DNA from: an uncultured Methanoregulaceae archaeon
GTDB lineage: Archaea > Halobacteriota > Methanomicrobia > Methanomicrobiales > Methanospirillaceae
Direction: 5' to 3'
NCBI GenBank assembly: GCA_963717525.1
Contig: OY970343.1
Span: 384,001-448,000 of the forward strand
DNA length: 64,000 nucleotides
Position 1 is the stretch's first letter. Each line of letters opens with the position of its first letter. Position numbers and translations under genes: made by a program. The notes under the pieces are model-generated. The model saw only the letters and a list, made by a program, of their open reading frames with translations. It made no database searches and was not told the origin of the DNA. Shown here piece by piece: positions 26,930 through 34,107 of the stretch.

Positions 26930-27081
26930 TATAGTATGAGTGCCCCGGATGCTTAACGGTTTTTATAAAACAGGAAAGATGTGCTGCGGCGGGAGATGTT
27001 AAAATCAATCTGCGGGAGTGATCAGCGTGACACAGCGGCCGGCAAACGGTTTTTCCCTTAGTAAAAATTCCCGGTACATCT

Positions 27082-27410
27082 CAAGGGGGGAGGGGGGTGC
27101 CCCCTACCCCCCCTCACTTCTTTTTTCCAAGTGGGGGGTACCCTCCCCCCCATGTGCCGGGCCAGCAGGGGGTACCCCCTCTCCCTCAGGTCCCCGGCCG
27201 GGCAACCGGATGATAATCCCCTAAAAATGCAAACCTTACTCCTCACGCCGGAGATTCCATGCGAAATACAGGTTTTTGTTATGCAGAAAAGGAGCCTGTT
27301 GCCCGCATGGGGAGGGAGGGGGGAATCCCCTACCCCCCCTCACCTCATTTTTTGAACAGGGGCCTACCCCCCTCCCCCTGCCGGCCCGCAAAGGGGATCA
27401 CCCCCACCCA
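27082..27410. repeat. Tandemly duplicated G/C-run hairpin units
   Basis: GGGAGGGGGG...CCCCTACCCCCCCTCAC...TTTTT...TGCCGG.C....AGGGG at about 27087-27182 and about 27313-27406. Confidence 0.7.
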
Positions 27411-30330: not shown

Positions 30331-30347
30331 TCACTAACATCAAGTGA
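30331..30347. promoter_or_regulatory. Putative operator TCACT-N7-AGTGA between the TATA box and start of the heat-shock-regulator-like gene
   Basis: TTTATACA at 30317-30324, palindrome at 30331-30347, ATG at 30350. Confidence 0.5.
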
Positions 30348-30349
30348 AT

Positions 30350-30991
30350 ATGGAGGATCTCGCAGAATTCGCCCGGTTGCTCGATATCCTCGGGAACCGG
30401 AACCGGCGCCGCATCATCGGCCTCCTGCGGCAGAAGCCCTGCTTTGTCACCGAGATATCAGAGACGCTGATGATCTCGCCCAAGGCGGTTATCGACCACC
30501 TCCAGCTCATGGAGCGGGAGGAGATCCTCTCCTGCCAGATGGACGACCGCCGGCGCAAGTATTACTATCTCGCAAACGACATCCTCGTCGACGTTACCCT
30601 GCACAGCCTCCAGAGCGCCATGATCGGGCATGATGAGACGGGAAAGAACGCGGAGAACGAGCGGACCCGGCAGGCAGTCGTCATGCTCGCAAAGATGGTC
30701 CAGGCGCACGACCAGCTGGTAGCCCACCTCGAACAGCTCAACCATGACATCGACACGAAACTTGCCGATCTTGCCCGCAACCATAACGATTTATTCAGGA
30801 GCGAACGAGAACTATCTGTAGCAGTTGCCCTCTCCCACGAACCCCTGGCTCCGGACGAACTCCGGGAGGTTACCGGGTGCACACCGGATGAACTCGAACC
30901 GGTGCTTGCAGAGTTTGTAAAGAGGGGAATTGTATCGAGAACAAAGAACCGGATTACACTCAGAGGAATCCATGCTGACCAATCCCAATAA
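30350..30991 (+). CDS. ArsR-family regulator, Phr/HSR1-like archaeal heat-shock repressor
   Basis: LDILGNRNRRRII.LL..KPCFVTEIS..L.ISPKAVIDHL...RRKYY, coiled coil and a second wHTH. Confidence 0.8.
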   Translation: MEDLAEFARLLDILGNRNRRRIIGLLRQKPCFVTEISETLMISPKAVIDHLQLMEREEILSCQMDDRRRKYYYLANDILVDVTLHSLQSAMIGHDETGKNAENERTRQAVVMLAKMVQAHDQLVAHLEQLNHDIDTKLADLARNHNDLFRSERELSVAVALSHEPLAPDELREVTGCTPDELEPVLAEFVKRGIVSRTKNRITLRGIHADQSQ

Positions 30992-31391
30992 TCCCTACGA
31001 TGAAGTGTTTGGGAACCTCTCGAAGATCGTCGAGGAGATCGTGCGTAACATGCCTGAGGCCGAACACGCCCGTGTCATCGGGTATACCATCGTGACCCGG
31101 CAAGTCCCCGGCGAGCCCGGGATCTTCACCGGCGGGGCAAACAGCGGCGACGACGACATCCCGTACGAGGTGCTTGAGTCAGATACCCATATCTTTGTCA
31201 CCGCTGCGATCCCTCACAATGCCCAGTATGCCCCCTATGCGGATATCCAGACAAACGTGGTCCGGATCTGTATCGATGACCACTCCACGACCATCGAACT
31301 TGACAAGCCCATCGATGTCATCCACAGCATGTACCGGGTGCACCGCGGCGTGATGGACATCACGCTCCGGAAGGTCCCGGACTACCGGTAA
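30972..31391 (+). CDS. Hsp20/CS-like domain protein
   Basis: YEVLESDTHIFVTA...RGVMDITL beta-sandwich pattern; overlaps the regulator gene. Confidence 0.65.
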   Translation: MLTNPNNPYDEVFGNLSKIVEEIVRNMPEAEHARVIGYTIVTRQVPGEPGIFTGGANSGDDDIPYEVLESDTHIFVTAAIPHNAQYAPYADIQTNVVRICIDDHSTTIELDKPIDVIHSMYRVHRGVMDITLRKVPDYR

Positions 31392-31530
31392 TCTTCCCTT
31401 TTTCAGCCCTCTCGCATTTTTTTACCGGTTTTTATTGCTCTGGAGTAAACCCGGTCGGTCCATTTCCGTTTCTTGTACGTCCCTGTCGGTACTGTGCCGG
31501 GCAGATGCCAAAAACCACGCTTGAAAAAAG

Positions 31531-33717
31531 TTATGCCTTTGCCGGGATATCCGACGGTATCAACGGGCTGATCGCTTTCCTGCCGGGCCGGTACTCGCGG
31601 AACTGCCGGAGCGAGACGGTGAGGTCCCGGGTGAACGCGAAGTACCCGATCTGCGTATTCCGGCAGAGGTTCATTGCCATATCCATGAGACCTCGGGGAT
31701 CGGGCCGGGCCTCGCCCAGCCAGATGTGGAAAATGTTCCCCCCGTCCACGATCGGGAAAAAGACGTTCTCGATCTCCATGCGTCTGGTGAGCGGGACATC
31801 GGCGCCCGGCGCCACATGCGTCCCGTTCGTATAGTAGATCGGGAGATCCCGGGTATTCCCGAGGTTTTCGAGCGCGTAATCGAGGTCACCCTTGATCACC
31901 TTCACGGCAAAATCGTGGTATCGCTTGTCAATAAGATCCGCGACCGCAAAGCGCTGGCCGGTTGTCTCGGCAGGGGTCCGGGCAAGAGCAAGGGTCATGT
32001 TGTTCTTTTCCGAGAGTTTCCTTGCGTAGAGTTCCATCTCGGTCATCGCACGGACAGCGAGCTTGAACGCTGCCTTGGACTCGTGGGTCTGCTTGCCCGT
32101 ATGGTGCTGGACCATCTCGTTGACCCCCACCACGCCGATGGTGTACACGAGGCCTTCAAGATCGACCGCTATCGCCCCGCGTTCGCCGGTATTGGGATCT
32201 TTCGGGCGTTGCATCGCAAACGGCATCCTGCCGCTCGCCCGGATATTGTCCATCCACCGGCGCTTGATCCTGAAGAGTTCGACCGACACGTCCATGAGCG
32301 AACGGAGTTCGGCAAAGAGCCGCTCGTCGCTTCCCTGCGCCTTGTAGGCCGCACGCGGGCAGTTGACCGAGACCACCTGCCACGAGCCCATCGAGAAGTG
32401 CAGGCCCTCGTCAAAGACCAGTTTTTTACCGAAATCCGAATCCTTGTCAGCGACCGCCGAGAACTGGTAGGCGCAGCACTGGTAGCAGGAGATCCCCTTT
32501 CCCGCACCCCGGTATGCCGGGAGCTGGTTGTCGTAGTACGGCGTCCCGAACTTGGACGCGAGCTCGAAGGTCATGAGGTACAGGTCACGGAAGGTGGGAA
32601 GATCCGGGTGAGCCCGGTTGAACTCCTCGCGCTCGCTCATGAAATCCGGCTCGATGCTGATCTCGGGTTTGGGGAAGTTGAATGGCTTGCCCCAGTAATC
32701 GCCTTCGATCATCACTTCCATGAGCCCCTTGAAGAGCAGCCGGACTTCCCGCTCGAACTCGCCGTACGTGCGTCGCGGCGCCTGCTTCCCGTCCCAGACC
32801 TTCCCTTTGTAGACACAGGGCTTGTCCTGCCAGAGTGCCGGGACACCGGGCGAGAGCTGGACCGACGAGAAGACGAGCTGGCCGCCCCGTGCGACCATCA
32901 TCTGTGTCATCTCGTAGACAAACATCTGCATGTTCTGTTTGATCTCCTCGTAGGACATACCCTCCATGTACGGCGCAAGGAAGGTGAGGAAATTATAGTA
33001 GCCCTGCCCGCCGGCAAAATTCGTCTGGGCGCTCCCGAGTGCTTTTACCGCATGGAGGATGGCAACCTCCGCCCGTTTTGCCGGGCCGGCGACCGATGCC
33101 TTTGTCCCGTTCCCGTCCGGCATGAGTCCGTAGTAGAAGAAGTACCGCAGGTCCCAGTCCTGGCAGAACGGGCGCGTCCCGAAATATTCGAGGTCGTGGA
33201 TGTGCATCTCGCCGGAGAGGTGGTGATCGGCAAGATCCGGGGGAAGCTGGAGCAGGTACTGCTCCTTTGAGATCTTGTCCGCTTTTTTCTTGTGGCTTGT
33301 CTCGGCGTTCTCCTGGAGGTTTGCGTTGTCGTGCGCCTCAAAGCCCTTGCCCACGTCGATCTGGTGCGCATCGTAGACCGGTGTCCCGACCCGGGTGCAG
33401 ACGTTCCTGTACTGCAGCATCCCCTTTTCAAGGAGCGTGATATTCATGATCTCCCGGATGAGCGGGCCCGAGAGGGACTTTATGCCAAGGGAAAGAATAC
33501 GCTGTTCGACCAGCCGTGCGATATCCTGTGCGGTTGCCTCGTCTGCGCCTTCGTACCCGTAGAACGCCTCGACGAGCTTTGTCTCTTTTTTGATCTGTTC
33601 GGCGATCCGGTTCCGGTCCCACTCGATAATGTGGCCGTCGGTTGTCCGGACGAAAGGCAGGGCCGGGGAAAAACTGCCGTCAAGGGTCTGCTGCAGGGTT
33701 TCCCGTCGCGTCATCAT
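31531..33717 (-). CDS. nrdD: Anaerobic (class III) ribonucleoside-triphosphate reductase lacking the C-terminal glycyl-radical domain
   Basis: ATP cone, HIHDLEY, FAGGQG, FNFPKPE, YQCCAY, TPAETT, YYTNGTH, GGNIFHIW, GYFAFTRDLTV, then a short tail and stop. Confidence 0.92.
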   Translation of the reverse strand: MMTRRETLQQTLDGSFSPALPFVRTTDGHIIEWDRNRIAEQIKKETKLVEAFYGYEGADEATAQDIARLVEQRILSLGIKSLSGPLIREIMNITLLEKGMLQYRNVCTRVGTPVYDAHQIDVGKGFEAHDNANLQENAETSHKKKADKISKEQYLLQLPPDLADHHLSGEMHIHDLEYFGTRPFCQDWDLRYFFYYGLMPDGNGTKASVAGPAKRAEVAILHAVKALGSAQTNFAGGQGYYNFLTFLAPYMEGMSYEEIKQNMQMFVYEMTQMMVARGGQLVFSSVQLSPGVPALWQDKPCVYKGKVWDGKQAPRRTYGEFEREVRLLFKGLMEVMIEGDYWGKPFNFPKPEISIEPDFMSEREEFNRAHPDLPTFRDLYLMTFELASKFGTPYYDNQLPAYRGAGKGISCYQCCAYQFSAVADKDSDFGKKLVFDEGLHFSMGSWQVVSVNCPRAAYKAQGSDERLFAELRSLMDVSVELFRIKRRWMDNIRASGRMPFAMQRPKDPNTGERGAIAVDLEGLVYTIGVVGVNEMVQHHTGKQTHESKAAFKLAVRAMTEMELYARKLSEKNNMTLALARTPAETTGQRFAVADLIDKRYHDFAVKVIKGDLDYALENLGNTRDLPIYYTNGTHVAPGADVPLTRRMEIENVFFPIVDGGNIFHIWLGEARPDPRGLMDMAMNLCRNTQIGYFAFTRDLTVSLRQFREYRPGRKAISPLIPSDIPAKA

Positions 33718-33983
33718 GCACCCGAGAGTATCACGCCGAGTTTGTTCTCGTCCAGCGTCCCGCCCGGGAAAAGGTCGCTTGTTGTGTAGAAATCGTCGCC
33801 CCTCTGGAGGACGGGCGCCTCGTTGACAAAGACACTGTTCACCCGGAGCTCGGTGAGGGCCTCGGCAGTTGACAGGTCGCGCTCGGAAAATGCATATCCG
33901 CCTTTTTTTAAGGCATTCTTGAGCATCACGCAGTGCGGACAGGTTTCCAGGGTATACACAATCAACGGCACGGTGTTCGGCAT
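33714..33983 (-). CDS. nrdH: NrdH-like glutaredoxin/thioredoxin
   Basis: VYTLETCPHC and EAPVL; ATGA overlap with nrdD. Confidence 0.85.
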   Translation of the reverse strand: MPNTVPLIVYTLETCPHCVMLKNALKKGGYAFSERDLSTAEALTELRVNSVFVNEAPVLQRGDDFYTTSDLFPGGTLDENKLGVILSGA

Positions 33984-34107
33984 AAAAAGCACCCTCTGTT
34001 ATCTAGCACTACGCATTTTGGGGATAAAAAAATCGTGGTTTAGTACCTTCTGCACGGTCCCTGTACCGGGCCTTTTTTAGCGATTACCATTTGTAGGTGA
34101 ATGGACA

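Follow-up and report, generated by a model that had tools for sequence, protein, structure and literature searches.

A probable two-chain class III ribonucleotide reductase in Methanomicrobiales, with its glycyl-radical domain on an unlinked small protein

In class III ribonucleotide reductases (RNRs), anaerobic and oxygen-sensitive enzymes that produce the building blocks of DNA, a glycyl radical generates a thiyl radical, by which nucleoside triphosphates (NTPs) are reduced. Here we describe an nrdD gene whose product ends before the glycyl-radical domain (GRD). The gene lies in the window, a stretch of 64,000 nucleotides of contig OY970343.1 (assembly GCA_963717525.1) from an uncultured Methanoregulaceae archaeon. 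It very probably encodes the barrel of a natively two-chain, obligate class III RNR whose radical domain would be supplied by an unlinked small gene, a reading based on gene anatomy, conservation, co-occurrence, linkage and selection. The closest described enzymes belong to subclass NrdD3, which is defined by a QCCR/A finger-loop motif without a leading Met (PMC9669993, section 2.5) and for which Table 1 of PMC9176816 lists a glutaredoxin-like NrdH as the reductant. Like the one-chain NrdD3 of Methanosarcina barkeri, as far as it is described in the accessible sections of PMC9176816 and PMC9669993, the system has a QCCA loop, an upstream CxxC redoxin, an NrdG2-type activase, FeThRed_B genes and a near-identical RVTGY...WNAGKQQELKDR tail sequence. 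Unlike in that enzyme, the GRD is a separate, unlinked product with extra Cys/His modules, and the barrel ends in a short conserved stub.

Free glycyl-radical proteins are represented by GrcA/YfiD of E. coli and Y06I of phage T4, described in the available text of PMC13450708 as autonomous glycyl radical cofactors for pyruvate formate-lyase (PFL). The small protein resembles both in its length of about 120 residues, in a glycyl-radical loop that would act in trans and in having virus-borne copies, with 32 of 45 IMG/VR loci of the short-ORF type. The preliminary description of this DNA had taken GrcA/YfiD as its model, which was apt for a small free glycyl-radical protein but did not extend to kinship: the small protein is derived from an NrdD tail and is zinc-finger-like, not PFL-like, and no PFL was found in the genome. 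Moreover, GrcA/YfiD is a repair part, whereas the client core here carries no GRD of its own, so that the small protein would be obligatory.

Divided RNRs have also been described. In the accessible sections of PMC9669993 and PMC4520616, the class II pair NrdJa/NrdJb is likewise split at the barrel end, with a Cys-rich C-terminal part as the second chain; those enzymes use adenosylcobalamin, and their second chain serves active-site reduction or cofactor binding and stores no protein radical. NrdD is also spread over more than one open reading frame (ORF) in phages whose nrdD gene is interrupted by introns or inteins or is fragmented, according to the available text of PMC3653736. Those breaks are caused by mobile elements or are unexplained and leave adjacent ORFs, whereas the break here lies at a domain boundary, separates unlinked genes and is fixed across an order.

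According to the available part of a 2026 review (PMC13450708), formate lyases are the only enzymes with known spare-part proteins, and whether other glycyl radical enzymes have them is undetermined. No report of an NrdD that lacks its GRD and is accompanied by a free one was found in the literature covered, which included the accessible parts of PMC9669993, PMC9531940, PMC4390871, PMC3019208, PMC3653736 and PMC13450708, with most subscription papers and supplements outside its scope; the split could have been mentioned before, for example in Wei et al. 2015 or its supplement. A large RNR phylogeny, by the available text of PMC9531940, dropped sequences under 400 residues, and the small chain would therefore be hidden from it.

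The window gene and the end of its barrel

Coordinates are window positions unless prefixed with C1 (genome contig) or with an L or G label (loci and genomes). The 728-residue product matched PF13597 over model positions 1-510 of 562 (E 4.8e-132) and TIGR02487 over positions 2-529 of 581, both above cut-off, and its finger loop reads YQCCAY at residues 412-417, as in NrdD3. The stretch from Y412 to Y417 was invariant in 30/30 aligned core sequences, as were the finger-loop cysteines C414 and C415 and the barrel cysteine C185. Identity between the core and full-length NrdD relatives in the phylum was 64-69%. The last conserved core motif, GYFAFTRDLTVS, begins at residue 691. NrdD C-termini were aligned across the order, which is taken to be Methanomicrobiales from the names of homologs (Methanoregula, Methanofollis, Methanolacinia, Methanospirillum and Methanogenium), and the cores of 30/30 relatives ended alike, 25-33 residues after the same motif in the fetched loci. 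The six-frame check of window 31301-31800 revealed no CxxC plus R(I/V)xGY in any frame. The preliminary description had claimed an NrdD core with an intact finger loop and no GRD, whose absence is not an assembly frameshift at the core end; the two profile matches and the six-frame check confirm the first point, and the lack of this motif combination in every nearby frame bears out the second.

The position of the break was further examined in an AlphaFold2 model of the core, with a mean predicted local distance difference test score (pLDDT) of 74.6. Compared with the NrdD structures of T4, P. copri, S. thermophilus and T. maritima, the model gave Z of 23-27, up to the last barrel strand. Residue 697 aligned to residue 675 of P. 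copri NrdD (8p2s_A; Z 27.4, root-mean-square deviation 3.4, 460 aligned), in which the GRD comprises residues 676-739 according to the accessible part of PMC11226230; the core thus stops at the boundary between barrel and GRD. The core counterparts of P. copri residues that contact the GRD or the substrate are invariant, namely N131 and N133 of the NxN flap, HxHD at 172-175 and E584, the last corresponding to the glutamate that, in the same part of PMC11226230, binds the tyrosine after the radical glycine.

Beyond the barrel, the core carries a stub that aligns with the TVC knuckle of full-length NrdD enzymes. Among split cores of the order, L703 and E708 were each conserved in 22/22 sequences, F706 in 21/22 and Q705 in 19/22. 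The model has pLDDT <50 across residues 699-728. The protein ends in PAKA, followed on the coding strand by TAA, one C and six T. A terminator scan built for bacterial hairpins reported nothing at the 3' end of the core gene; the scan for sigma-70 promoters gave nothing relevant.

The free glycyl-radical protein and its partner genes

The preliminary description had predicted a stand-alone small ORF with CxxC pairs and RVTGY elsewhere in the genome, and such a gene was found at C1:1852269-1852632, 1.43 Mb from the core gene. When the genome (2.29 Mb) was scanned in six frames for R[IVLM][TSCVA]GY, 40 stretches were obtained, only one of which had two upstream CxxC pairs and an NrdD-like tail. 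PF13597 matched the genome exactly twice, in the window core (model positions 1-510) and at C1:1852468-1852620 (507-562), so that the two genes are complementary halves of the model. In this assembly the small gene is frameshifted by one extra base. Since the base is absent from five close relatives and from contigs of 4/4 sequencing runs (four studies), the gene is intact in nature, and the protein of the relatives has 120 residues. The deoxyhypusine synthase gene (L001:6575-7514 = C1:1850574-1851513) also appears frameshifted, by an extra base at L001:7159, 1.3 kb upstream of the small-gene error; this base, too, is absent from 4/4 run contigs, and the assembly therefore holds two single-base insertion errors in the 3 kb tested.

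The small protein contains, in order, CxxC-x8-CxxC, C-x3-4-C/H-x-C-x-H, CxxC-x4-CxxC-x2-H, RVTGY and a WNAGKQQELKDR-type end; its layout starts with an N-terminal helix, continues with the CxxC..CxxC module and then another Cys/His module, and closes with the RVTGY loop and its C-terminal helix. R92, T94, G95 and Y96 were invariant in 46/46 aligned small proteins. In Pfam and NCBIfam searches at E up to 0.1, 3/3 small proteins matched only NrdD and zinc-ribbon models and no PFL or GrcA model; weak matches to DZR and Spt4-like profiles reflect zinc-ribbon-like Cys pairs only. The AlphaFold2 model (mean pLDDT 77, predicted template modelling score 0.55) had no Foldseek match at E up to 0.001, and a wider structure search returned only two rows, with Z of 2.0-2.2. 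Judged by its sequence, the small protein is derived from an NrdD tail and not from GrcA, and its extra Cys/His modules are absent from one-chain NrdD. Database names currently given to its homologs are 'hypothetical', 'oxidoreductase', 'Spt4' or full RNR. The cellular small gene had pyrF as a genome neighbour in 99/114 loci, cbiZ in 98/114 and RPA in 86/114, counts that are not independent, and none of these 114 loci contained the core gene.

Selection on both genes was estimated from the counting-based ratio of nonsynonymous to synonymous substitution rates (dN/dS). The barrel gave ratios of 0.036-0.069 (4/4 pairs), the small gene 0.054-0.092 (6 pairs) and the core tail 0.37-1.0 (4 pairs; residues 702-728, 27 codons only). 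Both the core gene and the small gene are under purifying selection. The C-terminal zinc site and RxxGY loop that class III RNRs carry in the chain are missing from the core and are present as a separate gene; the NrdD barrel, the finger-loop and barrel cysteines and a cognate NrdG are present.

The search of the genome for nrdG was positive (C1:541426-541977, ORF of 270 residues), with 135.4 bits against TIGR02495 at a cut-off of 131.15. The redoxin gene runs from ATG at 33983 (alternative GTG at 33992) to its stop at 33714 and overlaps the nrdD start by the four bases ATGA. A redoxin homolog lies directly upstream of 32/33 truncated cores and of 6/7 full-length NrdD3 genes tested. The preliminary description had named the overlapping CPHC redoxin as the NrdH reductant; the linkage stands, but the protein is only NrdH-like, with 21.7 bits against the bacterial NrdH model TIGR02194 (cut-off 85.75), and its role is drawn from linkage and the published NrdD3 subclass. 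The genome also encodes two FeThRed_B proteins and a class II RNR. The latter (C1:1998275-2000694, minus strand, loci L002/L003) appears as two ORFs of 611 and then 193 residues, the second being a Cys-rich end, 9 bases apart, which is either a split of the NrdJa/NrdJb type or another assembly frameshift; across the order, PF02867 frames are near 550-620 or 730-790 residues. No PFL-like enzyme (PF02901) was found in 5/5 genomes including this one, which is 87% complete by markers; the PF02901 positive control matched in 3 of 14.

Table 1. Positions of the features of the nrdD locus in the window
Feature	Position	Strand	Remark
Class III RNR large chain, NrdD3-type, 728 residues	31531..33717	minus	N-terminal region and complete 10-stranded barrel, without GRD
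Finger loop YQCCAY, residues 412-417	32467..32484	minus	QCCR/A motif of subclass NrdD3
Final barrel strand GYFAFT, residues 691-696	31630..31647	minus	Strand 692-696 in the AlphaFold2 model; the fold of known NrdD barrels ends here
Conserved post-barrel stub S/C-L-x-Q-F-x-E, residues 702-708	31594..31614	minus	Site of the first zinc knuckle in full-length NrdD; candidate docking strand
Variable tail, residues 709-728	31534..31593	minus	Predicted disordered
Six-T run just 3' of the core stop codon	31524..31529	minus	Possible archaeal terminator
NrdH-like glutaredoxin (CPHC)	33714..33983	minus	Probable electron donor; PF00462 above cut-off

Several other features were noted in the window. An ArsR-type regulator, weakly similar to Phr, a regulator of the heat-shock response (NF053602, 65 bits, cut-off 320), and then a 140-residue protein without a Pfam or NCBIfam match are encoded at 30344-31391 on the plus strand, and this gene pair converges on the end of nrdD. 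A 770-residue N6/N4 DNA methyltransferase (PF01555; 27823-30135, minus strand) has a long C-terminal part that ends nuclease-like; the DNA in which it lies seems more AT-rich than its neighbours, and it may be a mobile gene of a restriction-modification system. A GC-rich segment at 27018-27400, flanked by a KTSC gene and a gene for a small membrane protein, contains repeated and inverted GGGG/CCCC motifs.

Distribution in the order, in viruses and beyond

The order was sampled with 219 genomes, namely 218 that are at least 90% complete and the genome described here. PF13597 matched in 202/219, the small gene was present in 199/219 and nrdG in 198/219, and small gene, core and nrdG were present and absent together across the order. 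In the best 150 of 487 PF13597 matches, all NrdD cores ended at model position 474-521 of 562 and no full-length NrdD client was found; the top score in the order was 455 bits, vs 486-536 bits for uninterrupted full-length NrdD. The end point was the same across six families, and no R(I/V)xGY was found in any same-strand frame across the first 1.4 kb or so, or more, downstream of truncated cores (33/33 tested). Genus g21 had the small gene in 0/18 genomes, nrdG in 0/18, no NrdD match in 17/18 and a class I/II-type barrel in 18/18. One of its genomes, G033, which gave no small-gene or nrdG match, carries at C1:570000-580000 (L079) a differently built nrdD that is broken in two with stops and seemingly interrupted by transposase pieces, with a short activase-like remnant nearby.

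The need for the split enzyme was assessed in genomes without another RNR. PF02867, the model for class I/II-type RNRs, matched in 180/219 genomes and was absent from 39, none of them in g21. Five of the 39 were tested as the most contiguous: G157, G189, G192 and G201 (one contig) and G177 (two), 94-99% complete. TIGR02504 and TIGR02505 gave no matches in these five, and PF13597 matched only a truncated core and a separate tail. Cells need an RNR. As the split enzyme is the only RNR found in these five genomes, it must work there, unless an RNR was missed. The preliminary description had held that the core gene would be merely degenerate if the genome lacked a free glycyl-radical protein and encoded another complete RNR. 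The free protein exists; the class II RNR is also present, so that in this genome the presence of another RNR is not decisive, and the question is decided by relatives with no RNR found other than the split enzyme.

Two further observations concern the cores of the order. In G038-G041 and other genomes of families f4 and f5, NrdD cores occur in frames of 1200-1320 residues or as three to five partial matches, consistent with inteins. In G042, two equal-scoring truncated cores lie about 15.7 kb apart (C1:285076 and 300796), one in a shorter frame, through duplication or an assembly repeat.

The GRD was also found in viruses. The 45 IMG/VR loci with a GRD comprise 31 short ORFs, 13 stretches that form the tail of a full-length NrdD, and the ambiguous L122. 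On four viral contigs (L113, L134, L138 and L139), the small gene, a glutaredoxin gene and a truncated core follow one another on one strand, with a FeThRed_B gene next in three of these clusters; the cores end at PF13597 position 513-518. Because the tail gene lies upstream of the core, it is not a frameshifted core end. No core was found within the fetched flanks of the other 28 viral small-gene loci, nor in the whole record of L115, the only one so searched. The viral core of L134 (4547-7795) contains an intein that carries a LAGLIDADG domain. In two genomes of the order, a small contig holds another, longer copy of the small gene, one (L081, G199:C24) beside terminase, PDDEXK nuclease and MCM genes, probably in a provirus, and one (L080, G127:C35) beside a MazG-like gene.

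Beyond the order, 150 of the 274 GRD matches in a sample of 401 genomes of the phylum were considered. Of the 66 listed matches outside the order, 55 lay in frames of 759-1258 residues (full-length NrdD), ten in frames of 118-131 residues and one in a 95-residue frame at a contig start. Five of the ten genomes with 118-131-residue frames were examined further. Four of them (G515, G274, G256 and G344), like G407, encode a stand-alone GRD protein beside full-length NrdD, the layout of a spare part; the fifth, G507, combines a truncated core with a free-standing tail and is another split case, outside the order. In the stand-alone proteins from outside the order, the final Cys/His module is retained together with the radical loop, and the N-termini differ. 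Named records with such short proteins come from Methanococcoides seepicolus, ANME-2c, other Methanosarcinales bins and three bacterial bins; the bacterial proteins (L156, L157 and L159, from WOR-3, Ratteibacteria and one more) are stand-alone GRD proteins of the same kind. In G515 and G274 (L072:4944-6124 and L073), the stand-alone GRD gene beside full-length NrdD sits two genes from FeThRed_B, and in three genomes of this genus full-length NrdD comes in two types, QCCAY and MCCR, separated by about 13 kb.

A quick tree search was performed on 22 core rows chosen from the fetched loci, with viral cores left out. The 12 split cores of the order formed one branch (Shimodaira-Hasegawa-like approximate likelihood ratio test, SH-aLRT, 99) inside full-length NrdD3; provided that the root given by the distant outgroup is right, this nesting makes the split a derived state. 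The split core of G507 (family f36) was weakly placed (SH-aLRT 28) and fits one or two origins.

Proposed mechanism, rival explanations and significance

In the two-chain enzyme that we propose, the radical S-adenosylmethionine activase NrdG would radicalise G95 of RVTGY in the small protein, by homology with NrdD. The small protein would then dock where the GRD of one-chain enzymes sits on the barrel, probably aided by the L-x-Q-F-x-E stub and by its own extra metal sites, and the glycyl radical would generate the finger-loop thiyl radical, with NTPs reduced. Finally, by comparison with NrdD3, the NrdH-like redoxin, fed by a ferredoxin-disulfide-reductase-like protein, would return the cysteines of the active site to their reduced state. 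Wei et al. in 2015 reportedly described a ferredoxin disulfide reductase that feeds the NrdD3 redoxin.

Several observations weigh against this proposal. With a class II RNR present, the split enzyme may not be needed in this genome, and 3/4 of the runs whose contigs lack the small-gene extra base may be the source of this assembly. As only the best 150 of 487 PF13597 matches were assessed, intein-interrupted full-length NrdD is possible in some genomes. The loss of small gene and nrdG in g21 is one joint evolutionary event, not 18. G164 (220 contigs, 92% complete) has a core and neither the small gene nor a class I/II RNR was found in it; G015 has a core without the small gene; and nrdG was not found in G140, G180 and G014 (90-91% complete). 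All misses outside g21 are in drafts of 90-93% completeness.

Among the rival explanations, the one that survives best, although we consider it improbable, is a core that works without a bound glycyl-radical partner, for example with NrdG making the thiyl radical directly, while the small protein acts in regulation or works for some other enzyme. The two genes are indeed unlinked in cells, where the small gene mostly keeps company with pyrF, cbiZ and RPA; the small protein has Cys/His modules that one-chain NrdD lacks; and some genomes with full-length NrdD also encode stand-alone homologs, which are not an obligate part there. Against this explanation stand the invariant radical motif of the small protein, the joint presence and absence of small gene, core and nrdG, the clustering of the small gene with the truncated core in viruses, and the lack of a PFL-like client in all five genomes searched.

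A very unlikely explanation is that a split intein, trans-splicing or recoding unites the two products again in a single chain or mRNA, which would give an ordinary mature enzyme. Phages are known to have split RNR genes and RNR genes with inteins (available text of PMC3653736), inteins occur in some of the NrdD cores here (L134; frames of 1228-1320 residues), and the stub often starts with Ser or Cys. However, neither the window core nor the small protein gave an intein match in the profile scan that detected the L134 intein, and the first stub residue varies among S, C, A and P across relatives, so that the junction lacks the fixed Cys/Ser nucleophile of a split intein. The genes are also more than a megabase apart, and read-through or frameshifting is excluded by the tail gene lying upstream of the core in four viral clusters.

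That the core gene is a decaying remnant, with the class II enzyme doing the work, is scarcely credible and largely refuted. The class II gene here, the frequent PF02867 matches across the order and the frameshifted small gene of this assembly would fit decay, but they are outweighed by a core end point shared by six families, by dN/dS under 0.1 for the core barrel and the small gene, by five closed or near-closed genomes in which no RNR but the split enzyme was found and by the absence of the frameshift from the contigs of all four runs. Mis-assembly that removed the core C-terminus, the refutation foreseen in the preliminary description, is given a negligible chance: the assembly does contain single-base errors, two in the 3 kb tested, and yet the cores of 30/30 relatives end alike, a refutation that comes from conservation among relatives and not from reads at the core end itself.

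Within the two-chain enzyme, the small protein may tentatively be seen as an exchangeable radical cartridge, an extension that we hold at somewhat less than even likelihood. It would be charged free by NrdG, visit barrels in turn and alone be replaced after oxygen cleavage. It would have originated as a GrcA-like spare part beside full-length NrdD3, the layout of G515, G274, G256 and G344; because the spare part came first, the barrel could lose its GRD, at least once in the ancestor of the order, with possible further losses in f36 and in viruses. Viruses with the small gene only might use it to boost or commandeer the dNTP synthesis of the host, in the way that T4 uses Y06I for PFL.

The small chain is a strong candidate for a radical subunit that is detachable at all times; so far, parts of this kind have been demonstrated for one other enzyme only, and there as repair pieces. 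The assignment also corrects the annotation of the small protein. The question of spare parts beyond formate lyases becomes directly testable with four soluble proteins. The small protein is also a natural small substrate for studying NrdG activation, in which the mobile GRD is an obstacle, and the intermediate states (full-length with spare part, split and virus-borne) show how a radical subunit can arise. If the two-chain reading is true, an entire methanogen order would have an essential enzyme whose radical domain is normally free, and in some species this enzyme would be the only route to dNTPs.

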